Assembly: GCA_964386715.1 (NCBI GenBank)
Contig: CAYLTD010000019.1
Coordinates: forward strand, 7,075-71,074
DNA from: an uncultured Bifidobacterium sp.
GTDB taxonomy: Bacteria; Acidobacteriota; Vicinamibacteria; Vicinamibacterales; CAVVIG01
Direction of reading: 5' to 3'
Length of the DNA stretch: 64,000 nucleotides
Shown: piece by piece, positions 2,261-51,899 of the stretch
How the letters are laid out: the number at the start of each line of letters is the position of its first letter
How positions within the stretch are numbered: the first letter of the stretch is position 1
Program-made: the position numbers and the translations under genes
The notes under the pieces: generated by a model
The model's database searches: none
Told to the model about the DNA's origin: nothing
The model's input: the letters and a program-made list of their open reading frames with translations, nothing else

Positions 2261-4120
2261 TCACGCCCGCGGGAGCAGGATCGTGAACGTCGTGCCCTTT
2301 CCTGGAGTCGACTGTACTTCAATCTCGCCGTCGTGCATCTGGACCGTGCGATAGACCATCGACAGCCCGATGCCGCTGCCCTGCGGCTTGGTCGTGAAGT
2401 AGAGATCGAAGATCCGCTGCAGGTGCTCCGGCTTGATGCCCACGCCGGTATCCGCCACGGTGAGCTTCACGCGGCCATTGCGACCCGCTTCGCAGGCCAT
2501 CCGCAGCGTGCCGCCATCCGGCATGGCCTGGCAGGCATTCAGGGCCAGGTTCAGGACCGCCTGCCGCAACATCGCCGGGTCGCCGTTCACCTCCGGTGCA
2601 GACGCCGCATCCACGTCGATGCGGATCCGACGCTGCACGGCCTCCGGCGTCACGATCGGCACCACCTCGCCGAGCAGTTCGGCCAGGTTCACCCGCTGCA
2701 GCTTCAGGTCCTCGGGGCGCGTGAACTTCAGGAATCCCTGCACGACCTCGTCCAGGCGCCGGATCTCGCGAGCGATCACGTCCACGTGCTGGAGCGCGGC
2801 CGGCGGCGGACCTGGGGGCGCCGCGTCCGCGATGCCGAGCGGACCTCGTGCCACGCCCCGTCCTGCACTCGCCACCGAGGGCGCCACGTACTGACGCAGC
2901 AGTTCCAGGTGGATCATCATCGAGTTCAAAGGGTTCTTCACCTCGTGCGCCACGCCAGCTGACAGGCGGCCGAGGGCGGCGAGCTTGCGGGAATACCGGA
3001 TCGTCGACTGCACCTGGCTCAGGTACTCGACGTTGCGCGCGATGAGCATCACGCCCATCAGCGCGCCGGTCGCATCGAGCACGGGATGCGCGAGCAGCAG
3101 GCGCTCGCCCTGCTCCCCGCCCGGCAGCGTGAAGGTGGCGGACAGCGGGCCGCGCGACTGGTGCGTGGCCAGCGTTTCGTCGGCAAGCTGCCGAAGCGGG
3201 TGCTTCGCGGGCACGAGTCCCTCGAGCGCCGCTCCACTCGTGGCGTCGGCCACGAGCGAACGCATGGCGGGGTTCGCAAAGAGCAGCTCGCCGTTCGGCG
3301 CGACGATCGCCACGGCGTCCTCGAGGTGCTCGACCGCGGATTCCAGGTTTGCGACCTGCCCTGCCATCTGCGAGCGGTCCGCGGCGATCTGCGCGCTGAC
3401 CGCGTTGAAGAACGTCCCGAGTTCCCCGAACTCGTCCTGTGGCAGATCCAGCTGCACTCCGGACTCGCCGCGCCCGAGCCGCGTCAGCCCGCTCCGGATC
3501 ACGTGAATCGGGCGCAGCAGCAGCTGAGCGAGCACCGAGGCCCCGAAGACCGCAATGGCCAGTGCTGCCAAGGCGGTGACCACCGCCGGGCCGAGCGATC
3601 GGTTCAGGTCGCGGCGGATGAGCAGGGTCGACACGCCGATGTGAATGGAACCGATCGGCCGATCATCGAGCAGCAGAGGCTGGGCGAAATCGAGGTTGCG
3701 CCCCTCGTCGCGATAGATCGTCGTGAGCTGCTCCACCTTACTCCGGGTCAGCAGTTCCTGGAGCGAGGCCAGCACCGGGATGGGCTCGCCCTCCTGCGCG
3801 CGGTCGGCGTGCATCACCGCCGTGCCGCGAGCGTCGGCGATTGCGGCAAAGGTCACGTTGTTGTCGTACAGGCTCGCCTCGAGGATCGACCGCAGGCCCG
3901 GGTCGTCGTGCAGCAGCAGCGTGGGGTCTGCCTCGCCAGTGACGACGACCTCGCGCGCGCGGTGGTAGATCGCATTCGCCAGCAGTTCGGCACGCGCCCG
4001 GCTCTCGTCCAGGCTGACCTGCGCCAGCCCCGCGAGGTGCAGCAGACTCAGGACCACGACGACGACGCCGACAATCAGCGTGACGCCGAGGACCTGCTTG
4101 CCCTTGATGCCGAGACGCAT
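2261..4120 (-). CDS. Membrane sensor histidine kinase (N-terminal TM and sensor region, HAMP, PAS, HisKA, HATPase_c)
   Basis: H-box AHEVKNPLNSM, N-box LNLALNACQAM, G-boxes DTGVGI and GSGIGLS, and an N-terminal TM segment VLGVTLIVGVVVVVLSLL. Confidence 0.9.
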   Translation of the reverse strand: MRLGIKGKQVLGVTLIVGVVVVVLSLLHLAGLAQVSLDESRARAELLANAIYHRAREVVVTGEADPTLLLHDDPGLRSILEASLYDNNVTFAAIADARGTAVMHADRAQEGEPIPVLASLQELLTRSKVEQLTTIYRDEGRNLDFAQPLLLDDRPIGSIHIGVSTLLIRRDLNRSLGPAVVTALAALAIAVFGASVLAQLLLRPIHVIRSGLTRLGRGESGVQLDLPQDEFGELGTFFNAVSAQIAADRSQMAGQVANLESAVEHLEDAVAIVAPNGELLFANPAMRSLVADATSGAALEGLVPAKHPLRQLADETLATHQSRGPLSATFTLPGGEQGERLLLAHPVLDATGALMGVMLIARNVEYLSQVQSTIRYSRKLAALGRLSAGVAHEVKNPLNSMMIHLELLRQYVAPSVASAGRGVARGPLGIADAAPPGPPPAALQHVDVIAREIRRLDEVVQGFLKFTRPEDLKLQRVNLAELLGEVVPIVTPEAVQRRIRIDVDAASAPEVNGDPAMLRQAVLNLALNACQAMPDGGTLRMACEAGRNGRVKLTVADTGVGIKPEHLQRIFDLYFTTKPQGSGIGLSMVYRTVQMHDGEIEVQSTPGKGTTFTILLPRA

Positions 4121-4214
4121 GGTGATCCTCGCCGGCTTCAGCCCAGGGAACGCCGGGCACCGGGTGGTGACTCCAGGCTCCGGGCTCCCGGGGCGGTTGC
4201 CCCGGCCGCCGGTC

Positions 4215-5675
<1,461 letters not shown>

Positions 5676-25678: not shown

Positions 25679-26158
25679 TTATCGGGCGAGCAGCTGGCGC
25701 TCGACCGGGTGCTCTGCGATGAGCGTCCACTGGGTCGAGCCGTACTTGGCGAAGATCTGGACGCGCGCGTCCACGAACAGCTTGTTGGCGAGCATCTGCG
25801 CGCGCGGCTCGGTACTCGTGTAGCCGAGGTTCGATTTGACCGTCAGGACGTTGCTGGACGCGCCAGGCGCCAGGCCCTCAGAGCCGGTGACCTTCAGGAA
25901 GCCGGCGCCCCACTCCTCGTTTTCGCCAACGCGTCGGAAGATGACGTTGCCTTGCAGGGTCGTTAACGGTTCGGTGCCGACGTTCTTGAAGCGGAACGTG
26001 ACAGTGGGCGCGATCTTGTTCTGGCCATTCACGACGCCAAGGTCCGACCAGCCGGTCGAGACCTCTTCCACCTGAAGCGCGGTCTTCAGATCGATCTTGG
26101 AACCGCAGCTTGCACCGGCGAGGGCGAGCAGCAGTGTCAGGCAGAGTGTCGCGCGCAT
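25679..26158 (-). CDS. Hypothetical lipoprotein
   Basis: MRATLCLTLLLALAGASCGSK (lipobox) followed by a beta-rich body. Third codon positions are G/C-rich, and it lies on the same strand as the ECF operon upstream. Confidence 0.6.
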   Translation of the reverse strand: MRATLCLTLLLALAGASCGSKIDLKTALQVEEVSTGWSDLGVVNGQNKIAPTVTFRFKNVGTEPLTTLQGNVIFRRVGENEEWGAGFLKVTGSEGLAPGASSNVLTVKSNLGYTSTEPRAQMLANKLFVDARVQIFAKYGSTQWTLIAEHPVERQLLAR

Positions 26159-26167
26159 GCCGCCATT

Positions 26168-27106
26168 CTAGAACACCCGGACTTCGATGCGGTCGCGCAC
26201 GTCCAGCCGGGACACCTGTCCCCCGAGAAACGCGGTCAGGTCCGCGCCCCGTACCCGAATGACGACCGTGCGGGCTTCAGTGTCCACCCCGAGCCTGGGT
26301 CGGTCGTCGCTGCGCCGGGCCGCGACCGTGAGCCATTCGGATGCTCCGATGTTCAGGCCGCGGCTGTGCTCGAGCATGGCGTCGATCAGAGCCTCCCGGA
26401 TTTCGGTGCGGTAGGCCTCTTCAGGGTCGGCCAGCACCGCATCCACCGCTGGACGGGCCGCACTGACTGCGCTGGCCGGCACCGGACCCACGCCGATCGC
26501 CTGGGTGGCCGCGCCTGCGGGATCGGGAGCGGCCGGCAGGGGCGCCACCTGAAGCTCGACGCGTTTGAAGGCCTGCTGCACGTCGCTGCCTGCGGCCTGG
26601 ACGAACGTGCGCAGCGTGCCGAGCGCCCGCTCCAGGCCGAGGTCGTTCTGGTCGAGCGTCCGCATGCTCCAGGCAAACGTCCCCTCGAGCGAGGGCACCT
26701 CGACATCGAAGAACACGCCGTACCCCTCGAGGCGGAACCCGCGTGCGCGCGCGTTCTCGGCGAGCAGCATGTCCGCCGGCATGGCGGCGGACAGCCTGTC
26801 CCTCATGACCGTAGCCCCGTGCTCCACGGCGCCCTCGAGCACGCGCTCCATCTGGCCGATCTGGTAGCGCGCTTCCCGGAGCCGCTGCTGTTCCTGGCGC
26901 CCGGCGCCCGCACTGCCACGCGCTTCCGGGGGCTGCGCGCCGACCAGCGACGCCAGGCCGACCATCATCGCCGTTACGCAAGCAGTCCGCATGAATACGA
27001 AAGCAGTCCGCATGAAGATGTATCCCTGCCGTGTGTCGTACGCCCGTGACTCCGCCGGGCGCGCCGTCGAGTCGTCCATGTGCCCCTCTGCCGGCCCAGG
27101 CGGCAT
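26168..27106 (-). CDS. Hypothetical secreted or membrane-anchored protein (no recognisable family)
   Basis: The ORF has coding-like composition. The hydrophobic segment MRTACVTAMMVGLASLVGAQP looks like a signal peptide if translation starts at ATG 26992 or 27013. ATG 27106, 4 nt after the anti-sigma stop, is the longest option. The start is unresolved. Confidence 0.55.
   Translation of the reverse strand: MPPGPAEGHMDDSTARPAESRAYDTRQGYIFMRTAFVFMRTACVTAMMVGLASLVGAQPPEARGSAGAGRQEQQRLREARYQIGQMERVLEGAVEHGATVMRDRLSAAMPADMLLAENARARGFRLEGYGVFFDVEVPSLEGTFAWSMRTLDQNDLGLERALGTLRTFVQAAGSDVQQAFKRVELQVAPLPAAPDPAGAATQAIGVGPVPASAVSAARPAVDAVLADPEEAYRTEIREALIDAMLEHSRGLNIGASEWLTVAARRSDDRPRLGVDTEARTVVIRVRGADLTAFLGGQVSRLDVRDRIEVRVF
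26976..27017. repeat. 21-bp tandem duplication (2 copies, 19/21 identical)
   Basis: acgcaagcagtccgcatgaat / acgaaagcagtccgcatgaag. On the coding (minus) strand this duplicates the start-codon region, giving FMRTAFV-FMRTACV. Confidence 0.85.
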
Positions 27107-27110
27107 GCCG

Positions 27111-27926
27111 CTACGGCCGTTGTGAGACCTGCTGCGCCAGGCTGTTCAATTGCCGTTGGGTTCTCATCACCTCGACGCCCGTGCGGCTCTGAATCAGCCC
27201 GAGGCTGCGATCGATCTTCACGAGATCGGCCTGCCGTTGCGCCTGCGCCTCGCGGGCGACCTGCGCGACACGAAGCGCCAGCTCGTTCTGCTGTCGCTGC
27301 TCGCTCTCGGCCACGAGGGCACGCACGCGCCGGAGCAGCGACTCGGCGTCGGTCGACGAGACCGCCTCGACGCGTGTCCGCTGCGCCGCCAGTTCCGACC
27401 GCAGGGCGCCTTCGAGCGCGACCAGGTCCGCCTTCCACGGAGTATCGGCCGGTCCTGCCAGGGCTGCGGGTGTCGGCGAGGTGGTGCCACGAGCCGTCGC
27501 CTGGGACGACTCCAACGGCGCCATCCAGCCCGTGCGAACGGTGAGGCCGTCTCCCGTGAACGAGACCCGCAGGTTGGCCAGGCCCAGTCCCGCCGAGAAC
27601 AGCAGGACCGCCGCGGCTGCCTGTGCCCACGCCGGGAGCCGATGCCCCGCGTAACTCCAGCGTTCGGCCGCGGCGGGCGCCGGGACCAGGCGCAGCGGCA
27701 CGCGCGGCGACTTTCCGCCCACTCCTGGCGCCGGCTCGGGTGACGCCCAGCTCGCGAGCGTCTCCCTGACGTCCGAGAAGGCCGCCAGCTCACTCCGACA
27801 CGCCGCGCACGCCGGAAGATGGGCCTCGAAGACGCGTCGGTCCGGCGCGTCGAGTTCGTCATACACGAATGCGATCAGCGCCTCTTCGCGCTGCTCGCCA
27901 AATGGACAGGTCATCTCGTTCTTCAT
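27111..27926 (-). CDS. Anti-sigma factor (zf-HC2), single TM, periplasmic coiled-coil domain
   Basis: The N-terminus ...FEAHLPACAACRSEL matches the H-x3-C-x2-C zinc motif. The TM segment is AAAAVLLFSAGLGLANL. It starts 1 nt after the ECF sigma stop. Confidence 0.8.
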   Translation of the reverse strand: MKNEMTCPFGEQREEALIAFVYDELDAPDRRVFEAHLPACAACRSELAAFSDVRETLASWASPEPAPGVGGKSPRVPLRLVPAPAAAERWSYAGHRLPAWAQAAAAVLLFSAGLGLANLRVSFTGDGLTVRTGWMAPLESSQATARGTTSPTPAALAGPADTPWKADLVALEGALRSELAAQRTRVEAVSSTDAESLLRRVRALVAESEQRQQNELALRVAQVAREAQAQRQADLVKIDRSLGLIQSRTGVEVMRTQRQLNSLAQQVSQRP

Positions 27927-27927
27927 G

Positions 27928-28500
27928 TCACGCCACTCGCCCGGCGGTCCGCTCCAGTTCGCGGCGCAGCACCGTCAGTCCTTGATACAAGCGCGTCTTC
28001 ACCGTGCTCAGCGGACACCCCATCAGGTCTGCGATCTCCTGGAACGTCAGGCCGTGATACTCCTTCAGGATGATCGCCTCTCGCTGCTCATCGGGCAGGA
28101 GCGCCATCGCCCGTTCCACGTGTCGAGTCAGGTCCTTGCGCGCGACCAGCGCCTCGATCGATTCCGACGGCTCGGTCGAGGCCTGGAGGTCGGCCAGGTC
28201 GGTGTCCTCCGGCGGCTGGACGACCGGCGTGCGGCGCTCCCGGCGCATCCAGTCGTGGCACAGGTTCAGCGTGATGCGATAGAGCCAGGACGAGAACTTC
28301 GCCTGTCCCCGGAACTTGGGTAACGCCCGGAAGGCGCGCAGGAACGTCTCCTGGCACACGTCCCGTGCGTCCTCTTCGCGGCCGATGGTGCGGTACGCCA
28401 ACGCATAGATTGGCCGCTCCCACCGCAGGACCAGCTGGTTGAAACTGTCGTGATCGCCGCCCATCGATCGGGCGACGAGTTCTTCGTCGGTCCACGTCAT
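27928..28500 (-). CDS. ECF (group 4) RNA polymerase sigma factor
   Basis: Region 2 reads FNQLVLRWERPIYALAYR...EDARDVCQETFLRAF and FSSWLYRITLN. Region 4 reads LPDEQREAIILKEYHGLTFQEIADLMGCPLSTVKTRLYQG. Confidence 0.92.
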   Translation of the reverse strand: MTWTDEELVARSMGGDHDSFNQLVLRWERPIYALAYRTIGREEDARDVCQETFLRAFRALPKFRGQAKFSSWLYRITLNLCHDWMRRERRTPVVQPPEDTDLADLQASTEPSESIEALVARKDLTRHVERAMALLPDEQREAIILKEYHGLTFQEIADLMGCPLSTVKTRLYQGLTVLRRELERTAGRVA

Positions 28501-31753: not shown

Positions 31754-32923
31754 ATGCCCGCACTGCGTCCACCAACCGAAATCGCGTCGAAGAGGCGTCG
31801 TGCCGCCACACCTGCTCCCGGCGCGGGGCCCGACGACCGGTTCTTCCGGCACCTCGTCAACAGCATGCGGAACGGCGTCATTGCCATCCACCGCAACGGC
31901 ACGCTGGCGCTCGTCAACGACGATGCGTATCGGGTGTTTGCGCTGACGCGAGGCGCCGAGGACATCGGGCAACCCTTCGGCACCATCTTCCGCAGCCGCC
32001 CGGAACTGGTGCGGGTGCTGGCCGCGGCCTTCGAGATGTCGACGCTGCCGAACCGCGCAGAACTGCGCCTGAAGGACCTCGACCGCGTGGTCGGCTACAC
32101 GCTCTCCCGGGTGAGGGACGACGCCGGCCAGGCGATCGGCGCGGTGATGTTCCTGAAGGACCTCACCCAGGTGGAGCAGCTCGAGGAGCGCGAGCGCCTG
32201 CGCGATCGGCTGGCGTCGCTCGGCGAGATGGCGGCCGGCATCGCGCACGAGTTGAAGAATCCGCTCGCGGGCATCGAGGTCATGGCTGGCCTGCTGCGGC
32301 GGCAGGTCCCCGATTCGCCGGACGCGCAGTCGCTGCTCGCCGACATCCTCAGCGAAGCCAAGCTCGCGAACGCGATCGTGGTGGAGATGCTGGAGTTCGT
32401 GCGCCCAATCCGGCTGCAGATGGAACAGACCGACATCGCCGGCGTGCTGCAGCAGTCGCTGATGAACGCGGACAGCAAGGTGCCGCGCCACCGGATCGAG
32501 GTGCACATGGACATCGCACCGGGCGTTCCGCTGATCGATGGCGACGCCGTCCAGTTGTGCCAGGTGTTCACGAATTTGCTGACCAATGCGTTCGAAGCCG
32601 TCGGCGGGGCCGGCCGAATCGAGGTGAAGGCGGTACTCGAAGCGGTCGAGCACGACCCGGAGTTCCTCGACGTGCAGCAGCCGACCCAGGCGGTGGTGAT
32701 CGAGGTCGCCGATGACGGGCCCGGCATCCCCGCGGACCTGAGCGACCGGATCTTCAATCCCTTCTTCACGACCAAGACGACCGGCTCGGGGCTCGGGCTG
32801 CCGATCGTCCGCAAGATCGTGGACGCCCACGATGGGCGGATCGACCTGAGCAGCGAGCCGGGCCGGGGCACGCGGTTCCGCGTGACGCTGCCCGTCTCGT
32901 CGAATGCGAGCTGGTTCAAGTAG
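31754..32923 (+). CDS. Cytoplasmic PAS-domain sensor histidine kinase
   Basis: There is no TM segment. The PAS-like region reads FRHLVNSMRNGVIAIHRNGTLALVNDDAYRVF. The H-box is AAGIAHELKNPLAGI, the N-box is FTNLLTNAFEA, and the G-boxes are DDGPGI and GSGLGLPIV. Confidence 0.9.
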   Translation: MPALRPPTEIASKRRRAATPAPGAGPDDRFFRHLVNSMRNGVIAIHRNGTLALVNDDAYRVFALTRGAEDIGQPFGTIFRSRPELVRVLAAAFEMSTLPNRAELRLKDLDRVVGYTLSRVRDDAGQAIGAVMFLKDLTQVEQLEERERLRDRLASLGEMAAGIAHELKNPLAGIEVMAGLLRRQVPDSPDAQSLLADILSEAKLANAIVVEMLEFVRPIRLQMEQTDIAGVLQQSLMNADSKVPRHRIEVHMDIAPGVPLIDGDAVQLCQVFTNLLTNAFEAVGGAGRIEVKAVLEAVEHDPEFLDVQQPTQAVVIEVADDGPGIPADLSDRIFNPFFTTKTTGSGLGLPIVRKIVDAHDGRIDLSSEPGRGTRFRVTLPVSSNASWFK

Positions 32924-32936
32924 AGAGGCATCGAAC

Positions 32937-34358
32937 ATGGGCCGAATCCTGGTTGCGGACGATCACGATGCGCTGCGGCGCGGGCTTGCCCGCGGCCTGG
33001 CGGAAGCCGGCCACGAGGTGGAGGAAGCGTCGAACGGCAACGCCGCCATCGAGCGCCTGCACGACAGCCACTTCGACGTCGTGCTGAGCGACCTCAAGAT
33101 GGGCGGCAGCGACGGCATGGACGTCCTCCGCACGTGCCGCGCGCTGCATCCCACGACGGCCGTGATCCTCATGACCGCGTTCGGCACCGTCAACACGGCG
33201 GTCGAAGCCATGAAGATCGGCGCGTTCGACTACGTCCAGAAGCCCTTCGAGATCGAGGAGATGGAGGTCAAGATCGAGAAGGCGCTCGAGATGAAGCGCC
33301 TGAAGCACGAGCTCGAGTACCTCCGCGGCACCCAGCAGGACATCTACGACTTCGACCGCATCGTGGGATCGAGCCCCGCCCTCGGGAGCGTCCTCGACAT
33401 CGTCAAGAAGGTGGCGAAGAGCAACACAACGGTGTTGATCCGCGGGGAAACCGGCACCGGCAAGGAACTGATCGCCGGCGCCACGCACCACAACTCGCTG
33501 CGCAATGCCCGCAACTTCGTGAAGGTGAACTGCGCGGCCCTGCAGGAGAACCTGCTCGAGTCCGAGCTGTTCGGGCACGAGAAGGGCGCGTTCACCGGTG
33601 CGGACAAGCAGCGCATCGGCCGATTCGAGCAGGCCGACGGGGGCACGCTGTTCCTCGACGAGATCGGCGACATGAGCCCGAGCACGCAGGCCAAGATCCT
33701 GCGCGTGCTCCAGGAGCACGAGTTCGAGCGACTCGGGGGGACGCGGACGCTGCGCGTGGACGTGCGCCTGATCGCCGCGACGAACCGCGACCTGCCGGCG
33801 ATGGTGCAGGCCGGGCAGTTCCGCGAGGACCTGTATTACCGGCTGAACGTCGTGTCGATCGAGATGCCGCCCCTGCGAGAGCGCAAGGAAGACATCGTGC
33901 CGCTCGCCAACTCGTTCATCCGCCGCTTCTCGGGCGAGCTGAAGAAGCGGATCGACGGGCTGGAGCCCGACGCGCAGAAGCTGCTGATGCGCTACAACTG
34001 GCCCGGCAACATCCGCGAGCTCGAGAACACGATTGAGCGCGCGATGCTGCTGGCCGAGGGCCGCGCCATCGCCGCCGACGATCTCCGCCTCGGCGAGACG
34101 CCGACGCCGGGTGGGCGCGAGCAGGCGCCGGTCGTGCGCATCCCCCCCACGGGCATCCCGCTCGACAGCGTGGAGCGCATCGCGCTCATCGAGGCGCTCA
34201 AGATGTCCAACTGGGTGCAGAAGGACGCAGCCGAACTGCTCTCGATCAGCCCGCGGGTCATGAACTACAAGATCAAGACGCTCGGCATCGAGTTCCCGCG
34301 CGGCCGCCGTGCGGCGCCGCTCCACCAGGCCGAGGGACCGATCGCCGCTGCGTCCTGA
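32937..34358 (+). CDS. Sigma-54-dependent response regulator (NtrC family)
   Basis: ATG 32937 has AGAGAGG upstream and gives MGRILVADDHDALR...DVVLSDLKMGGSDG. GETGTGKE, GAFTGA, RLIAATNRDL and WPGNIRELEN follow. The C-terminal HTH reads VQKDAAELLSISPRVMNYKIK. Confidence 0.93.
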   Translation: MGRILVADDHDALRRGLARGLAEAGHEVEEASNGNAAIERLHDSHFDVVLSDLKMGGSDGMDVLRTCRALHPTTAVILMTAFGTVNTAVEAMKIGAFDYVQKPFEIEEMEVKIEKALEMKRLKHELEYLRGTQQDIYDFDRIVGSSPALGSVLDIVKKVAKSNTTVLIRGETGTGKELIAGATHHNSLRNARNFVKVNCAALQENLLESELFGHEKGAFTGADKQRIGRFEQADGGTLFLDEIGDMSPSTQAKILRVLQEHEFERLGGTRTLRVDVRLIAATNRDLPAMVQAGQFREDLYYRLNVVSIEMPPLRERKEDIVPLANSFIRRFSGELKKRIDGLEPDAQKLLMRYNWPGNIRELENTIERAMLLAEGRAIAADDLRLGETPTPGGREQAPVVRIPPTGIPLDSVERIALIEALKMSNWVQKDAAELLSISPRVMNYKIKTLGIEFPRGRRAAPLHQAEGPIAAAS

Positions 34359-46998: not shown

Positions 46999-48261
46999 TC
47001 ACGCGCCGGTCTCGACCGCGGCCCGCTCGAGGGCCAGCATGTCGTCCACCGTCTGACGCCGCCGGATGACCTCCCACCGGCCGTCGTCCACGAGCACTTC
47101 GGCAGGCAGCGGCCGCCGGTTGTAGTTGGAAGCCATGGCTGCGCCGTAGGCGCCGGCGTCGCGGATGACCAGCAGGTCGCCGACCTGCAAGGGCGCGAGC
47201 AGGCGATCGCGTCCCACGACGTCACTGCTCTCGCACACGGGCCCGACGATCTCGTAGTGCCGTGCCTCCTCGCCCGAGTCGGACGCCCGCTCGATCCGGT
47301 GGAAGGCGCCGTAGAGCGCCGGCCGCATCAACTCCGTCATACCCGCGTCGATGACAGCGAAGTCGCTCACCGCGTTGCGGGGCTTGATGTCGATCACACG
47401 CGCGAGCAGGACGCCGGCCGGTCCCACGATGGCGCGGCCCGGCTCGAGCACGATTGGCAGGCCTGTTGGCCGGACCGCATCCACGATCGCGCTCACGTAC
47501 TCGTGCGCAGACAGAACCGGCGTCCCGTCGTAGGAGATCCCGAGGCCTCCTCCCACGTCCACGTACTCGAGCGGCAGGCCGGCGCGGGAGAGTTCACCGG
47601 CCATGGCGGCCACGAATGCCGCTGCCCCCCGCAGGGGTTCGAGGCTGGTGATCTGCGAACCGATGTGCACGTGGACCGCCACGAGCTTGAGAAACGGGCG
47701 CCCGTCGAGGGTCGCGAACACCTCGCGTGCAGCGTCGGTGGGCACGCCGAACTTGTTGATCTTCAGGCCGGTCGAGATGTGCGGATGGCTCTTGGCGTCG
47801 ATGTCGGGATTGATGCGAACAGCGACACGCGCAGGACGTCCCAGGCGCGCGGCGATGGCCTCGATGCGGTCGAGTTCCCCGGCGGACTCCACGTTGATGG
47901 CCTTCAGACCGAGCGGCACGGCGGCTTCGAGTTCAGCGGGCGCCTTGCCGACGCCCGTGAACACGATTTGGGAGACGTCGAACCCGACGCGCCGGGCCAC
48001 CTCGATTTCCCAGATCGAGTTGGCATCCGCGAAGCTGCCGAGCGAGCGGAGCAGGCGGGTCAGCCCCAGACTCGAGTTCGCCTTGAGCGCGTAGTGCAGC
48101 GCGTGCGGGTAGCCGCCAAACGCCTCGTCGAGCGCGGCGTAGCGACCGCGGATTTCGGACGCGCTGTAGACGTAGGTGGGCGTGCCCTCGCCCGCCGCGA
48201 TCGACGACAGCGGCACGCCCTCGCACGCGAGGTCCCGCCCTGCTCTGTGGAATCCAGTCAC
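46999..48261 (-). CDS. lysA: Diaminopimelate decarboxylase
   Basis: GTPTYVYS...YALKAN (PLP Lys), HIGSQ, DVGGGLGI, EPGR..VG and CES.D. I prefer GTG 48261, which has GGGAG 7 nt upstream. The ORF-track start at ATG 48294 is the alternative. Confidence 0.92.
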   Translation of the reverse strand: MTGFHRAGRDLACEGVPLSSIAAGEGTPTYVYSASEIRGRYAALDEAFGGYPHALHYALKANSSLGLTRLLRSLGSFADANSIWEIEVARRVGFDVSQIVFTGVGKAPAELEAAVPLGLKAINVESAGELDRIEAIAARLGRPARVAVRINPDIDAKSHPHISTGLKINKFGVPTDAAREVFATLDGRPFLKLVAVHVHIGSQITSLEPLRGAAAFVAAMAGELSRAGLPLEYVDVGGGLGISYDGTPVLSAHEYVSAIVDAVRPTGLPIVLEPGRAIVGPAGVLLARVIDIKPRNAVSDFAVIDAGMTELMRPALYGAFHRIERASDSGEEARHYEIVGPVCESSDVVGRDRLLAPLQVGDLLVIRDAGAYGAAMASNYNRRPLPAEVLVDDGRWEVIRRRQTVDDMLALERAAVETGA

Positions 48262-48317
48262 GAATCGACTCCCGACTATATCACCTGATATCATCGCGTG
48301 ATCCTGCGCTCCCTCAC

Positions 48318-48950
48318 ATGGCCGTCGAACCTTCCGCGCCCGAAGACGTCGAATCGCTGATCCAGCGGTGCCTGCGAGGCGATCAGGCGGCGTGGGAGCG
48401 CATCGTCCGGCTGTACTGGCGAAAGGTGTTCAACGTCGCCTACAAGTTCGTGGGCAAGCACGACGAGGCCGAGGACCTGACGCAGGACATCTTCCTGAAG
48501 ATCTTCAAGTCGCTCGAGACCTTCGATCGCCGCGCCAACTTCCAGACCTGGCTGATCAGCGTCAGCCGCAATCTCTGCATCGATCACTACCGGAGCGTGC
48601 GCAAGGAACGCGAAACGATCGATCGTGACGTCGACGCGAACGAGCTGACACCGGCGGCGGCGGATGCCAGCCCCATCGCCGCGCTCGAGCAGCGCGACCG
48701 CGTGACGCTGCTGCGCGACGCGCTCGCTTCCCTGCCGGAGGCGCTCCGGACCGCGGTCGTGATGCGCGACATCCAGGAGTGCTCCTACCAGGAGATCGCC
48801 GACCGCCTGCAACTGCCCGAAGGCACGGTGAAGTCACGGATCAACCGCGGGCGGACCGAACTCGCACGGCAGATTCGGCGCCTGCGGGGGGAAGACTACA
48901 GTCCGAGCGGGTCGTCCACGGACGGCCGCTCTCGTACGGGAGCCTACTGA
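48318..48950 (+). CDS. ECF (group 4) RNA polymerase sigma factor
   Basis: WERIVRLYWRKVFNVAYKFVG..DEAEDLTQDIFLKIF, FQTWLISVSRNLCIDHYR, and LPEALRTAVVMRDIQECSYQEIADRLQLPEGTVKSRINRGR. Confidence 0.9.
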   Translation: MAVEPSAPEDVESLIQRCLRGDQAAWERIVRLYWRKVFNVAYKFVGKHDEAEDLTQDIFLKIFKSLETFDRRANFQTWLISVSRNLCIDHYRSVRKERETIDRDVDANELTPAAADASPIAALEQRDRVTLLRDALASLPEALRTAVVMRDIQECSYQEIADRLQLPEGTVKSRINRGRTELARQIRRLRGEDYSPSGSSTDGRSRTGAY

Positions 48951-49291
48951 TGAACGTCACGACCGAACAGTCCGGCAACGTCTCGATCGTCAGGGTCGGC
49001 GACAGCCGGTTGATGTACCCGATGCTGGCCGACTTCTCTGCCGTCGTGACGGCACTCGTGAACGGCGGCTCACGCCGGATCGTCATCGACCTGGCGCCGG
49101 TCACCTACGTGGACAGCGCCACGATCGGCTGCTTCATGGATCTCTACCGGACCATCGCCGGTGTCGGCGGACAGCTCAAGCTGTCAGGCGTGCAGAAGCG
49201 CGTCGAGACCATGCTGACGATGACCGGCGCGCAGAACTTCATCCAACTGGTCACCGACGAGGCGACCGCGGTGAAGAGCTTCGGGAACTAG
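48950..49291 (+). CDS. STAS-domain protein (anti-sigma-factor antagonist, SpoIIAA/RsbV-like)
   Basis: ATG 48950 shares one base with the sigma stop (TGATG). The product reads NVSIVRVGD.RL.......F...V..L...G.RRIVIDLAPVTYVDSATIGCFMDLYR...G.GGQLKLSGVQ..V...L.MTG. The conserved Ser context DSA is present. Confidence 0.8.
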   Translation: MNVTTEQSGNVSIVRVGDSRLMYPMLADFSAVVTALVNGGSRRIVIDLAPVTYVDSATIGCFMDLYRTIAGVGGQLKLSGVQKRVETMLTMTGAQNFIQLVTDEATAVKSFGN

Positions 49292-49293
49292 CC

Positions 49294-49560
49294 ATGCGCA
49301 CCATCAAGACCACGACGGGCTCCGAGGTCACGCTGGACGGGGACCTGCTCGCGATCATGGAGCTGCTGTACCGCGAGGTCACGGCCAGGCGGGCCCTCGA
49401 GCGCACCTTCGACGACATGGTGCGCGAGATTCATCACCTCATCGACCAGATGGACGAGGACGAGCGGCGGGCCTACCTGCTCGAGAGCCTGTTCCTGAAC
49501 ACCGTGCGCTACGAGAACGACAAGCTCGAGGCGTACATGAAGAAGCTCTCGAAGAAGTAG
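49294..49560 (+). CDS. Hypothetical 88-aa acidic, helical, Cys-free protein
   Basis: ATG lies 2 nt after the STAS stop, and third codon positions are strongly G/C. The product is MRTIKTTTGSEVTLDGDLLAIMELLYREVTARRALERTFDDMVREIHHLIDQMDEDERRAYLLESLFLNTVRYENDKLEAYMKKLSKK. I recognise no family. Confidence 0.55.
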   Translation: MRTIKTTTGSEVTLDGDLLAIMELLYREVTARRALERTFDDMVREIHHLIDQMDEDERRAYLLESLFLNTVRYENDKLEAYMKKLSKK

Positions 49561-49563
49561 CAC

Positions 49564-50925
49564 GTGTCACTGAACTTCCTCGCCACACGCTTCCAGTGTT
49601 CGTGGCCGTGGGACATCCTCGTGATGCTCTGCGACGGCCGCTTCGTCTGCGGGTGCGCCGACCCGTATGGACGGCGCGTGCTCGGCGATGCCAGGACCGG
49701 TTCGGTGCAGGACACGTGGACCGGCGATGCGATCCGCGCCCTCCGGGCGGATCTGAACACCGGCGGCTCGCGGTTCTGCGGCGACTGTCCCCTGAAGCTG
49801 CCGCTCAGGAAGGACCAGGTCCCCACGGTGCGCCCGCTCGACGCAGGCCTGCGGCCGCGGCGCATGTACGTGGAGTGCACGGCGGCGTGCAACATTTCGT
49901 GCAGCCAGGCGTGCTGCGCTCCCGAGACCGGCATCACCCGCACGCGGCAGGCGGGGATGCTGGACTTCGAGCTGTTCCGGCGGGTGATGGACGAAGCCGG
50001 ACCGACGCTGGCCCGCGTCGACTTCTTCAACTACGGCGAGGCGTTTCTCCACAAGAGGGCCGTGGAGATGTGCGAGTACATCAAGACGCACTTCCCGCAC
50101 ATCTACCTGTACACGAGCACGAACGGCCTGGCACTCTCCGAGGATCAGGCCAGGCGCCTGGTCCACTCCGGAATCGACGAGGTGACGTTCTCGATCGATG
50201 GCGCCTCCCAGGCGGCTTACGAGCAGTACCGCCAGCGCGGCAAGTTCGACGTCGCGATTCGCAACCTGCGCGCGATGGTGGACGAGAAGCGGAAGTCCGG
50301 GCGAGACCTCCCCTACCTGAACTGGCGATACATCCTCTTCAAGTGGAATGACAGCGACGAGGAGATGCAGCGGGCCCGTGACCTGGCCCGGGACATCGGG
50401 GTCGATCGCCTGTGCTGGGAGATCACCGATCACCCCGAGAACGCCTACTCGCGCCGCTTCGTGCCCGGATCGGAAGCCTGGGAGTCGATCCGCCGCGAAA
50501 CGTGGGACGACAGCAACCTCGGCAACGCGATACCGGGCGCCACGCCTCGGGCCCGGATTGAGGTGAAGCCGCTGCTGCCTGGGCTGCCGTTTGTCGGGGT
50601 CCGCGGGCGTGGCCTGGCCATTCGGGCACGCGTCCACAACCTGAGCACCCGCACTTTCCCGGTCACCGGATCGCAGGGACGGCGCATTGTCCGCCTGGGG
50701 GCGCAACTGTGCGCTGAGGATGGCCGCCTCATCAACCTCGACTACGCGCGGGCCGACTTGCCCCGCCCCCTCGAAGGGGGAGGCACCGCGGACGTGACCG
50801 TGGAACTGAAGGCCCTCCCCGACCCCGGGCGTTATGTGCTGAAGTTCGACCTGGTCAACGAAGGCGTGGAGTGGTTCGAGAAGTGCGGGTCTGCGACGAC
50901 GACCCACCCGCTACGCGTACTCTAG
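49564..50925 (+). CDS. Radical SAM enzyme with N-terminal SPASM/twitch-like Cys-rich block and C-terminal beta-rich domain
   Basis: GTG start lies 3 nt after the previous stop. Core motifs are VECTAACNISCSQACC (Cys triad region), FFNYGEAFL (GGE-like), YTSTNG and VTFSIDG. The N-terminal block reads CSWPWDILVMLCDGRFVCGC...W.G....LR......FCGDCP. Confidence 0.8.
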   Translation: MSLNFLATRFQCSWPWDILVMLCDGRFVCGCADPYGRRVLGDARTGSVQDTWTGDAIRALRADLNTGGSRFCGDCPLKLPLRKDQVPTVRPLDAGLRPRRMYVECTAACNISCSQACCAPETGITRTRQAGMLDFELFRRVMDEAGPTLARVDFFNYGEAFLHKRAVEMCEYIKTHFPHIYLYTSTNGLALSEDQARRLVHSGIDEVTFSIDGASQAAYEQYRQRGKFDVAIRNLRAMVDEKRKSGRDLPYLNWRYILFKWNDSDEEMQRARDLARDIGVDRLCWEITDHPENAYSRRFVPGSEAWESIRRETWDDSNLGNAIPGATPRARIEVKPLLPGLPFVGVRGRGLAIRARVHNLSTRTFPVTGSQGRRIVRLGAQLCAEDGRLINLDYARADLPRPLEGGGTADVTVELKALPDPGRYVLKFDLVNEGVEWFEKCGSATTTHPLRVL

Positions 50926-50987
50926 CGGGGCGCGTGCGCCTCAACGGCAGCGGGCCGCGGCCTGTTCCGCCGCGCGATCGTGGCGCG

Positions 50988-51899
50988 TCAGTTCGCGAGC
51001 CTGGCGGCGGGTGCGGCTGACGTCGTCAGCGCCGGGACCACGACGTCCGCAGAGCCTTCCACGAGTCGCCAGCAGTCGCTGGCCTCGAGAATCTTCCCCG
51101 CAAACTCGGTGTGCAGCGCATGGCCGGCACGGTGCGCAACTAGGTGCCCAATGACCGGGTGGCCGACCAGCGCGAGGTCGCCGACGGCGTCGAGAATCTT
51201 GTGGCGCACGAACTCGTCCTCGAAACGCAGCGCGTTGTTCAGGACGCCCGTCTCCCCCAGCACGATCGCGTTCTCGAGCGAACCACCCAGCGCCAGGCCG
51301 TTGCGCCGCAGCATTTCGACGTCCTTCAAGAAGGTGAACGTGCGCGCCGGCGCGATCTCCTCGATGAACGTTTCTTCGGTGATGCGCAGCGTCCGGGTCT
51401 GGTGCCGCAGCAGCGGGTGATCGAAGCTGATGCTGTAGGTGACCTTGAAGTGATCCGAGGGGTAGAGCGCAATGCGCTTTTCGCCCTTCGACAACGTGAT
51501 GGGCCGCGTGATCTTGAGGTACTTCCGCGGCGTTGCCAGCTGCTTCACACCCGCTTCCTGGATCAGGTAGATGAAGGGAGCGGCGCTGCCGTCCATGATC
51601 GGGACTTCTGGAGAGTTCAGCTCGATGAGCACGTTGTCGATGCCCATGCTCACGAGCGCCGCGAGCAGGTGCTCGACCGTCTCCACCGAGACTTCATTGC
51701 GCGACAGCGCGGTGGCCAACTGGATGCCGCCCAGGTGCTGGACCCGGGCCGGCACTTCGTGGTCGCCCTGGTCGGTCCGGCGGAACCGGATGCCAAAGTC
51801 GACCGGAGCCGGCTTCAGTGATAACTGGACCTTGTTGCCGGAATGCAGACCGATTCCGACACAGGAAATTGCGCGACGAAGGGTACGCTGTGCGTCCAT
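50988..51899 (-). CDS. lpxC: UDP-3-O-acyl-N-acetylglucosamine deacetylase
   Basis: ATG 51899 gives MDAQRTLRRAISCVGIGLHSGNKV.L.L.PA..D.GI.F.R.D. Later blocks read TVEHLLAAL...GIDN..IEL...EVPIMDGSA.PF and HKILDA.GDLAL.G. The upstream in-frame extension shown in the ORF track is not LpxC-like. Confidence 0.93.
   Translation of the reverse strand: MDAQRTLRRAISCVGIGLHSGNKVQLSLKPAPVDFGIRFRRTDQGDHEVPARVQHLGGIQLATALSRNEVSVETVEHLLAALVSMGIDNVLIELNSPEVPIMDGSAAPFIYLIQEAGVKQLATPRKYLKITRPITLSKGEKRIALYPSDHFKVTYSISFDHPLLRHQTRTLRITEETFIEEIAPARTFTFLKDVEMLRRNGLALGGSLENAIVLGETGVLNNALRFEDEFVRHKILDAVGDLALVGHPVIGHLVAHRAGHALHTEFAGKILEASDCWRLVEGSADVVVPALTTSAAPAARLAN

Follow-up and report, generated by a model that had tools for sequence, protein, structure and literature searches.

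A conserved ECF sigma, STAS and small-protein module in Vicinamibacteria: a possible partner switch without an adjacent kinase

The genes for an ECF sigma factor, a single-domain STAS protein and an 88-amino-acid protein (here p88) form a conserved three-gene unit in Vicinamibacteria; the three occur together in 76/76 related loci with room upstream, and the module is inherited vertically, and its place on the chromosome, upstream of lpxC and uvrA, is fixed. A fourth gene that follows them in the window (the 64 000 nucleotide stretch of DNA analysed here) encodes a radical-SAM enzyme; the slot that it fills is variable, and the gene is accessory and lies outside the conserved module. We propose, with a probability of about one half, that the trio is a partner switch without an adjacent kinase, in which p88 would act as a non-kinase anti-sigma factor (or other sigma-binding factor) that is countered by the STAS protein.

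Among alternative sigma factors the ECF family is the largest, and for many of its groups it is still not known how they are regulated. Vicinamibacteria (Acidobacteria subdivision 6, gp6) are dominant in many soils but poorly cultured, with a physiology that is, to our knowledge, almost unexplored. The trio is compact, and in it a STAS antagonist of Firmicute-style partner switching would be wired to an ECF sigma factor via a small protein family that is not recognised by databases. If the proposal is true, the anti-sigma factor need not be a kinase in partner switching; p88 would represent a new anti-sigma or sigma-cofactor fold; and research on Vicinamibacteria would gain a concrete regulator to work on. 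The module occurs in all 76 loci and its housekeeping neighbourhood is fixed, which suggests that its role belongs to core physiology and is not confined to a niche.

The operon and its encoded proteins

Four tightly packed genes lie on the forward strand (Table 1), and the coordinates and spacing given in the initial annotation were verified. The stop codon of the sigma gene and the start codon of the STAS gene share one base (TGATG, 48948-48952), which couples the STAS gene translationally to the sigma gene; gaps of 2 nt and 3 nt separate STAS from p88 and p88 from the radical-SAM gene respectively. For this genome co-translation of all four genes, as originally suggested, is plausible, but it does not characterise the system in general; the radical-SAM gene is probably co-transcribed with the module here.

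Table 1. Genes and candidate promoter of the operon, with positions in the window.
Feature	Position	Strand	Basis
Candidate sigma-70-type promoter	48265-48294	+	-35 (TCGACT), 18-nt spacer, extended -10; TGATATCAT
ECF sigma gene	48318-48950	+	ORF list and Pfam
STAS gene	48950-49291	+	ORF list and Pfam
p88 (88-aa ORF)	49294-49560	+	ORF list; without Pfam family
Radical-SAM gene	49564-50925	+	GTG start; Pfam

The candidate promoter is the only promoter-like site in the region 47900-51300 (mean of 0.2 in shuffled sequence) and overlaps with lysA, a divergent gene, at its start codon. Transcription is predicted to start near 48301, giving a 5' UTR of approximately 17 nt. An extended -10 element (TGnTAyvAT) was found upstream of the sigma gene in 40/79 related loci, compared with 0.4 in shuffles, and a TTGACA -35 element was also seen in several of them.

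The sigma factor is a protein of 210 amino acids with a C-terminal tail of about 20 residues that is not conserved; its sequence identity across 79 loci is 70-88%. Pfam matches were obtained to Sigma70_r2 (7e-20, residues 30-95), Sigma70_r4_2 (2e-17, residues 132-182) and Sigma70_ECF (6e-9), and no Pfam match to regions r3 and r1 was found; possession of regions sigma-2 and sigma-4 only places it with the ECF (group 4) sigma factors. The protein scored 119 bits against the NCBIfam model sigma70-ECF (TIGR02937, cutoff 43) and below the cutoff of every NCBIfam equivalog, and its nearest solved structure is Bacillus subtilis SigW (5WUQ, 1e-27).

A cognate anti-sigma gene beside the ECF sigma gene is typical, although not obligatory. 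The downstream proteins here are STAS and p88 rather than an anti-sigma factor with a recognisable domain, and Pfam and NCBIfam searches bore out the earlier reading that the operon contains neither a HATPase-type anti-sigma kinase nor a recognisable anti-sigma domain; the other ECF locus of the window (27111-28500) does have the zf-HC2 partner ascribed to it. Among the scanned window ORFs there was no RsbW-type kinase, the sole HATPase proteins being two classical HisKA histidine kinases. PP2C/SpoIIE phosphatases, which act on the STAS protein in classical partner switches, were not found among these ORFs or in the called genes of related loci, and no two-component genes adjoin the module. 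p88 is the sole candidate for the missing partner, as initially proposed.

The STAS protein has 113 amino acids and is a single-domain protein of the SpoIIAA/RsbV type (anti-sigma-factor antagonist); the Pfam STAS domain (PF01740, 6e-14) covers residues 3-107, in keeping with the approximately 110 residues of single-domain members. Its score against NCBIfam ant_ant_sig (TIGR00377) was 51.6 bits, slightly below the cutoff of 53.45. The protein aligns to SpoIIAA (1TH8) at 3e-9, with S56 at the phospho-serine position of the DSSG motif; the matching residue in the 1TID chain is alanine. D55 and S56 are kept in at least 98% of 82 sequences and, judged by this alignment, the phosphorylatable serine of the DS[ST]G motif is conserved as S56.

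The radical-SAM protein (453 amino acids) has the atypical architecture that was originally noted: an N-terminal SPASM-like Cys domain (Pfam SPASM, residues 12-76), an unusual cluster motif and a C-terminal beta-sandwich. The Radical_SAM domain (residues 104-244) scored 40 bits in Pfam (cutoff 29.5), and Foldseek also matched radical-SAM cores. The CX3CX2C motif, which in this superfamily binds the SAM cluster within a partial TIM barrel, is replaced by C105x3C109x3C113x3C117C118, in a loop modelled at a pLDDT below 50, and all of the cysteines are conserved among homologues. The C-terminal 125 residues are predicted to form an Ig-like beta-sandwich (AlphaFold, pLDDT 74), and Foldseek returned only generic radical-SAM cores and Ig-like domains for the model. 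Among SPASM/twitch maturases (TIGR04317, BtrN, BlsE), the core resembles TIGR04317 (6e-26) and, in the PDB, BlsE (7VOB, 6e-7) and BtrN (4M7T, 1e-5), and the Cys-rich auxiliary domain is recognised as SPASM; however, the auxiliary Fe-S domain is C-terminal to the core in those enzymes and N-terminal here, the motif is CX3CX3C(C) rather than CX3CX2C, the Ig-like beta-sandwich is extra, and all NCBIfam scores were far under family cutoffs. The GTG start is backed by homologues, in which residues 2-20, including C12, W14, P15 and W16, are conserved. One public gene call places the start 20 codons downstream of this GTG.

Conservation and coupling of the trio

The four-gene unit put forward initially is not conserved in relatives; only its first three genes are. 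The STAS gene adjoins the sigma gene in 76/76 related loci, and p88 always lies directly downstream of STAS, even in relatives with a p88 of only 34-43% identity, which keep either all three genes or no less than STAS and p88; the full trio was also seen in divergent lineages with p88 identities of 34-46%. One locus (L088) has the STAS-p88 pair with no neighbouring sigma gene. Across relatives the sigma and STAS genes overlap by 1-4 nt, and STAS and p88 are 1-3 nt apart or overlap by 8 nt. By comparison, the radical-SAM gene directly follows p88 in 32 of approximately 75 loci and is absent in 42; elsewhere the slot is empty or taken by a DUF1573 gene or by unrelated genes, and lpxC comes directly after p88 in 30 loci. 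The radical-SAM enzyme is consequently not the general output of the system, as had been supposed, and this correction keeps a modification-cassette reading out of annotations.

Evolutionary rates of the three proteins covary beyond the species and housekeeping background (partial Mantel r of 0.46 for sigma-STAS, 0.36 for STAS-p88 and 0.34 for sigma-p88; all p <= 0.0004), which indicates functional coupling rather than binding and does not give the sign of regulation. Correlations of p88 with the adjacent lysA, lpxC, uvrA and tmk were not significant (r -0.15 to 0.07), and the sigma factor likewise showed no significant covariation with its neighbours lysA and lpxC.

p88 and models for its function

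Conservation of the 88-aa ORF, on which the initial annotation depended, was confirmed: p88 is a real gene under purifying selection and strongly constrained, with a GC3 of 0.98, mismatches per codon position of 0.13/0.10/0.37 and numerous homologues. The latter number approximately 8000 at 90% clustering (85-94% identity among the matches listed) and form only 275 clusters at 50% clustering; relatives are present in 418 species genomes, and all named homologues are from Vicinamibacteria or Acidobacteria. Mean pairwise distances (p88, 0.21; sigma, 0.25; STAS, 0.26) show p88 to be no less conserved than its partners.

The protein is Cys-free and mildly acidic (net charge about -3) as first described, but in the AlphaFold model (pLDDT 78, pTM 0.51) it is not all-helical: residues 3-13 form an N-terminal beta-hairpin, and three helices come after it. 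Conservation extends over the full length with no variable core. The conserved core, Y61-x2-ESLFLNxVxYEN, is located in the long C-terminal helix, where almost all residues are conserved, and this near-complete conservation fits a protein buried between partners. Divergent homologues carry K/R-rich C-terminal tails; window p88 and its close relatives are without this basic tail.

No significant relative of p88 was found in Pfam, NCBIfam, PDB sequences or Foldseek (best Foldseek PDB match, E = 1.4). Anti-sigma families in Pfam (zf-HC2, RskA, RsrA, NepR, FlgM and others) were not matched by p88 at E <= 1, nor by any of 27 p88 family members at E <= 0.1. Three known anti-sigma types were rejected individually: a Class I factor (ASD/zf-HC2, HxxxCxxC), as p88 has no cysteine and no zf-HC2 or RsrA-type match; a member of the NepR or FlgM families, given the lack of Pfam and fold matches, although p88 may yet be their functional analogue; and a GHKL/HATPase_c serine kinase of the RsbW/SpoIIAB type, as p88 has only 88 amino acids and no match to HATPase_c or HATPase_c_2 in Pfam or NCBIfam.

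Gene conservation and linkage, selection, the identity of the domains and the covariation of rates are the part of the proposal that was observed directly. Transcription of the operon would start at a promoter of the housekeeping type (sigma-70, extended -10) and, if so, control would be mainly post-translational. We infer that p88, small, soluble and without an ATPase domain, would bind and hold the ECF sigma factor, that is, act with a negative (anti-sigma) sign; p88 occupies the position relative to the STAS gene that RsbW and SpoIIAB occupy. An anti-sigma factor is defined by binding its sigma factor and keeping it from core RNA polymerase, a role for which linkage and rate covariation give indirect support. 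The SpoIIAA-like STAS protein would then compete for p88 and free the sigma factor; a kinase and phosphatase from elsewhere in the genome, or an input of another kind, probably set the state of the STAS protein at its invariant Ser56. The gene after p88 is lineage-specific cargo riding on the operon, radical-SAM here, DUF1573 or others elsewhere, and often absent. There is a precedent in HsbA, a STAS antagonist that when unphosphorylated binds the small non-kinase FlgM, freeing FliA (PMC6482189).

Several points count against such a switch. p88 is unlike the known anti-sigma classes in sequence and fold, and its monomer model has only moderate confidence. An invariant phospho-serine calls for a kinase, which the locus does not encode; in classical partner switches the anti-sigma factor is itself the kinase that phosphorylates the STAS protein. 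Further, it is STAS and not p88 that directly follows sigma, so STAS could be the direct sigma binder; and as L088 has the pair without a neighbouring sigma gene, the target of the pair need not be a sigma factor. More tentatively, and with the odds somewhat against it, p88 may found a class of soluble kinase-less ECF anti-sigma factors displaced by SpoIIAA-type STAS proteins, which would be a third partner-switch architecture besides RsbV/RsbW and NepR/PhyR and a lineage-wide, general-stress-like master switch of Vicinamibacteria.

Linkage and covariation would equally support p88 as a positive cofactor that binds the sigma factor or RNA polymerase (like Crl with sigma-S, or RbpA with group 1 and 2 sigma factors) and on which the ECF holoenzyme depends for its activity or stability, with STAS modulating the availability of p88; in a variant of this reading STAS inhibits sigma and p88 antagonises STAS. 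It is STAS rather than p88 that is translationally coupled to sigma, a GC3 of 0.98 with very strong conservation would fit an abundant core transcription cofactor, and the K/R-rich tails of divergent homologues could contact nucleic acid. However, window p88 and its close relatives do not have these tails, the characterised partner switches compared all have STAS binding an anti-sigma or kinase-type partner, and we know of no STAS protein that binds a sigma factor directly; we regard a cofactor role as rather unlikely, at roughly half the weight given to the switch. Less probable again is that STAS and p88 signal to a non-sigma target (an enzyme, transporter or c-di-GMP protein; cf. SypA, SiaC and HsbA-HsbD) and are merely co-regulated with sigma. 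The L088 pair, the documented STAS proteins with non-sigma outputs and the lack of an anti-sigma signature in p88 are in its favour; against this, the sigma gene is adjacent in 76/76 close loci and most divergent ones, usually translationally coupled to STAS, and sigma covaries with both partners but not significantly with lysA or lpxC.

The initial annotation also raised the possibility that p88 is the substrate or chaperone of the radical-SAM enzyme, either a RiPP-like precursor or a dedicated chaperone, with sigma and STAS simply regulating the cassette. The two genes are 3 nt apart in the window, the enzyme has a SPASM-like auxiliary-cluster domain of a kind common in peptide-modifying maturases, and its best NCBIfam matches are SPASM-type maturases. 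Despite this, all related loci examined have p88, among them the 42 of approximately 75 without the radical-SAM gene; L010, in which sigma and p88 are both 88% identical to those of the window, has no radical-SAM gene after p88, L070 has it 3.6 kb away, and other lineages have a DUF1573 gene or nothing in the slot. A protein conserved end to end, predicted to fold, Cys-free and without a variable core or an obligate maturase is also not what is expected of a RiPP precursor, a candidate that was rejected. As a general explanation this reading is largely refuted, and we consider it very improbable.

Comparison with known systems

The proposed kinase-less switch resembles RsbV-RsbW-sigmaB and SpoIIAA-SpoIIAB-sigmaF of Firmicutes in having a single-domain SpoIIAA-type STAS protein with a conserved phospho-serine, the partner gene immediately downstream of STAS and the sigma gene in the same operon. 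It differs in that the partner has 88 amino acids and no HATPase_c kinase domain; the sigma factor is ECF (group 4) rather than group 3; the genes are arranged as sigma-STAS-partner instead of STAS-partner-sigma; and the locus contains no PP2C phosphatase or kinase. The Bordetella btr locus (ECF sigma BtrS, BtrU, BtrW, BtrV and anti-sigma BtrA) also combines an ECF sigma factor and a STAS antagonist in one regulatory locus, but there the kinase (BtrW) and the PP2C phosphatase (BtrU) are both encoded to complete the set, the anti-sigma factor (BtrA) is separate and secreted, and the partner switchers act on type III secretion and not demonstrably on sigma (PMC7498569). BtrW, BtrU and BtrA have no counterpart at the window locus.

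HsbA-FlgM-FliA of Pseudomonas aeruginosa shares with the proposed switch a STAS antagonist that binds a small non-kinase anti-sigma factor and frees the sigma factor, and the phosphorylation state of HsbA Ser56 decides its binding partner (PMC6482189). By contrast, p88 has no sequence link to FlgM and its family matches no anti-sigma Pfam family, FliA is sigma-28 and not ECF, and a kinase/phosphatase, HsbR, is known in that system. hsbA lies in a separate hsbAR-hptB cluster. It is not known to share an operon with flgM and fliA.

In agreement with the initial annotation, no described STAS-based ECF mechanism was found; STAS goes unmentioned in the main text of the paper that re-classified ECF sigma factors, and the only partner switch given there is NepR/PhyR of ECF15. 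In this system (EcfG-NepR-PhyR, Alphaproteobacteria) the antagonist is a sigma-mimicking response regulator, PhyR, and not a STAS protein; no scanned member of the p88 family matched NepR in Pfam at E <= 0.1, and no two-component genes are adjacent to the module. What it shares with the proposed switch is a small soluble helical anti-sigma factor that holds an ECF sigma factor until a partner switch removes it, conserved lineage-wide.

Gene layout and promoter region

The four forward-strand ORFs that the initial annotation had read as one operon, encoding an ECF sigma factor, a STAS protein, an 88-aa protein (p88) and a radical-SAM enzyme, are present where it had placed them, and its contrast with the second ECF sigma gene of the window, which has a zf-HC2 partner, was correct. 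The window has a G+C content of ~68% and the genes flanking the four ORFs lie on the opposite strand, with lysA and tmk upstream and lpxC and uvrA downstream.

Features of the window, with positions in nucleotides
Feature	Position	Strand	Remarks
ECF sigma gene	48318-48950	+	Sigma70_r2, Sigma70_r4_2 and Sigma70_ECF matches
STAS gene	48950-49291	+	STAS domain; ATG has one base in common with the sigma stop codon (TGATG, 48948-48952)
p88 gene, 88 codons	49294-49560	+	2-nt gap after STAS; no significant domain match
Radical-SAM gene	49564-50925	+	GTG start; 3-nt gap after p88; Radical_SAM and N-terminal SPASM-like domain
Predicted sigma-70-type promoter	48265-48294		TCGACT, 18 nt, then TGATATCAT
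Second ECF sigma gene	27928-28500	-	zf-HC2 anti-sigma adjacent
zf-HC2 anti-sigma gene	27111-27926	-	classical type
ORF after second ECF pair	26168-27106		no Pfam match
ORF after second ECF pair	25679-26158		no Pfam match
Histidine kinase gene	2261-4120	-	HisKA/HATPase by Pfam
ORF adjoining histidine kinase	4215-5675		N-terminus response-regulator-like by eye
Histidine kinase gene	31754-32923	+	HisKA/HATPase by Pfam
ORF adjoining histidine kinase	32904-34358		N-terminus response-regulator-like by eye

Start codons of the divergent lysA and sigma genes, as called, are separated by just 23 nt (window 48292-48318), so each promoter must overlap the 5' end of the other gene. The lysA ORF of the window is 431 aa long, and public gene calls in relatives range from 421 to 432 aa. 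Of 79 loci, 40 have an extended -10 element, TGnTAyvAT, ahead of the sigma gene (0.4 expected from shuffles), and a TTGACA -35 is also present in several related loci. This sigma-70-type extended -10 was the only conserved element in the region upstream of the sigma gene, where a search for an ECF-type autoregulatory promoter found none; farther upstream, conservation is confounded by the lysA coding sequence. From the conserved candidate sigma-70-type promoter, together with the lack of an ECF-type autoregulatory motif, we infer that transcription of the operon is constitutive and that control acts after translation. A search of 47900-51300 for intrinsic terminators gave none; in the window genome the radical-SAM gene is probably co-transcribed with the sigma, STAS and p88 genes (the trio). 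The two histidine-kinase loci (2261-5675 and 31754-34358) had no visible link to the trio.

A conserved trio and a variable fourth gene

A scan of one genome per species recovered p88 relatives in 418 genomes, and the best 80 loci were mapped with the window proteins. Sigma, STAS and p88 genes occurred together and in that order at 76/76 of these loci with room upstream. What follows p88 varies among the best 80 loci: directly downstream lies a radical-SAM gene in only 32 and lpxC in 30; other genes fill the p88–lpxC gap in nine, and at one locus the radical-SAM gene is 3.6 kb away. It is absent even from L010 (L-numbers designate related loci from other genomes), although the sigma and p88 proteins of this locus are each 88% identical to those of the window. 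Throughout Vicinamibacterales, the interval between p88 and the convergent lpxC (window 50926-50987) serves as a slot for variable insertions (L014, L031, L035, L039, L040, L073, L075): genomes differ in having there the radical-SAM gene, a gene for a ~160-aa protein (on the opposite strand, with a signal-peptide-like N-terminus), genes for ~745-aa membrane proteins, a DUF1573 gene, or no gene at all.

Among divergent lineages, with p88 34–46% identical, the trio is retained in L087, L090 and L093. A DUF1573 gene follows the trio in L091, where it is translationally coupled (4-nt overlap), and in L092, where it lies 2 nt downstream; L088 has a STAS–p88 pair without an adjacent sigma gene, and on the short contig of L086 this pair is preceded by a truncated ORF. 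Linkage is therefore tightest for STAS and p88, with sigma next, and the fourth gene is lineage-specific cargo, the radical-SAM gene lying outside the conserved module. The four-gene unit that had been proposed thus gives way to three genes, its order not being conserved in relatives. With the radical-SAM gene optional, the suggestion that p88 is its dedicated substrate or chaperone loses its basis and is highly improbable.

The radical-SAM protein does have the unusual architecture that had been noted: an N-terminal SPASM-like Cys domain (residues 12–76; C12, C23, C29, C31, C72, C75), a non-canonical core motif, C105x3C109x3C113x3C117C118 (window 49876-49917), instead of CX3CX2C, with all five Cys conserved, and a C-terminal Ig-like beta-sandwich (residues ~330–452). 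The loop carrying the cluster motif (residues 105–118) was modelled by AlphaFold at pLDDT <50. Foldseek searches with the model returned only generic cores (LIAS, viperin, MiaB, AprD4) and Ig-like, CARDB or PapD-like domains, and NCBIfam matches were far under the family cutoffs. One public call of the identical protein (record P0121, 433 aa) begins 20 codons 3' of the GTG (window 49564-49623), so that C12 of the SPASM-like domain and other conserved residues are lost. An Ig-like, PapD/ASH-type beta-sandwich occurs in both alternative fourth genes, radical-SAM (50530-50925) and DUF1573 (L091 4300-4683). A sequence link between the radical-SAM C-terminal domain and the DUF1573 protein was rejected, the two being alike in fold class only (BLASTP E = 0.14); as this pairwise similarity is not significant, the common beta-sandwich may be coincidence.

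The p88 family

The p88 gene is clearly under purifying selection in the called frame. Its G+C content is 0.98 at the third codon position versus 0.30 at the second, and mismatches across 45 equal-length orthologues are 0.13, 0.10 and 0.365 at successive codon positions. It is conserved at least as strongly as its partners (mean pairwise distances: p88 0.21, sigma 0.25, STAS 0.26). The family has depth but little breadth: at 90% identity it comprises ~8000 clusters, and only 275 clusters at 50% identity, many of them fragments or frameshift chimeras, emerged when 1.8 billion representatives were searched exhaustively with HMMER. All named homologues come from Vicinamibacterales, Vicinamibacteria or Acidobacteria. 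Three loci labelled Bifidobacteriaceae, Acidimicrobiia and Gemmatimonadales (L028, L029 and L057) carry the trio with p88 76–80% identical, and L028 and L029 keep the synteny of the window including the tmk–lysA flank; we read these as mis-binned Vicinamibacterales contigs and not as a wider distribution. STAS–p88 and p88–radical-SAM fusion proteins in databases were likewise set aside as frameshift chimeras of metagenome assemblies.

No relative of p88 was found in Pfam (p88 and 27 family members) or in NCBIfam (p88); a Pfam PUMA_CC match (E = 0.002; 18 bits, cutoff 30; 3 of the 27 members) was dismissed as coiled-coil noise. PDB sequences gave only noise (E >= 0.4), and Foldseek searches with the p88 model found no relative, with best E values of 1.4 (PDB) and 0.5 (viral BFVD). 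AlphaFold predicts an N-terminal beta-hairpin (residues 3–13) followed by helices at 18–33, 39–51 and 55–87 (pLDDT 78, pTM 0.51). Nearly all residues of Y61–N75 (YLxESLFLNxVxYEN) are conserved, which suggests that this helix is buried on all sides by partners. Divergent homologues (protein records P0300, P0361, P0339 and P0270; L087 1099-1503) have K/R/P/A-rich C-terminal tails of 20–50 residues that the window protein and homologues close to it lack; these tails could make nucleic-acid or ribosome contacts.

Candidate mechanisms and known partner switches

The sigma factor is a plain ECF protein with B. subtilis SigW as its closest solved relative, and had no equivalog at cutoff in NCBIfam. 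In an alignment of the STAS protein with SpoIIAA (1TH8, 3e-9), Ser56 coincides with the serine of the SpoIIAA DSSG motif, a position at which the 1TID chain has Ala; across 82 sequences, at least 98% retain D55 and S56. Searches of the operon, of genes called at related loci and of the scanned window ORFs revealed neither an RsbW-type kinase nor a PP2C phosphatase. The reading we favour, at a probability of about 0.5, is a partner switch without an adjacent kinase gene. Here p88, whose gene sits relative to the STAS gene as those of RsbW and SpoIIAB do, would hold the ECF sigma factor; competition from the STAS protein for p88 would counter this, and a kinase and a phosphatase with genes at other sites would set the state of the STAS protein at Ser56. 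A small anti-sigma that is not a kinase is already known as the target of a STAS antagonist: HsbA, when unphosphorylated, binds FlgM and thereby releases FliA (PMC6482189).

A mirror-tree test on 40 loci, with the common phylogenetic signal removed using a lysA, lpxC, uvrA and tmk background, gave partial Mantel r values of 0.46 for sigma–STAS, 0.34 for sigma–p88 and 0.36 for STAS–p88 (all p <= 0.0004); between p88 and the genes beside it no correlation remained in the same 40 loci (-0.15 to 0.07). This supports functional coupling of the three proteins, from which neither binding nor regulatory sign follows. Such coupling would also accommodate p88 as a positive cofactor of sigma or RNA polymerase, or the STAS protein as a direct binder of sigma; we consider this alternative possible but rather unlikely. 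A target of STAS and p88 other than sigma would suit the pair lacking an adjacent sigma gene in L088 and would sit uneasily with the sigma–p88 correlation; it appears improbable.

The trio occurs throughout its lineage, a clade abundant in soil, and lends itself easily to testing; a partner switch of the kind favoured here, as proposed from genomic comparison, would extend the partner-switch concept. By sequence and model comparisons, the module is built around a protein family, p88, that has no known relatives. STAS goes unmentioned in the main text of the ECF re-classification paper, which gives NepR/PhyR of ECF15 as the sole partner switch, and a review of non-canonical ECFs likewise has only the ECF15 NepR/PhyR switch. 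In its proposed logic the trio would be similar to known partner switches, but it lacks the defining feature of the RsbW type, a kinase anti-sigma. The Bordetella btr locus resembles the trio in combining an ECF sigma factor with a STAS protein, and differs from it in having a kinase, a PP2C phosphatase and a separate anti-sigma (PMC7498569).
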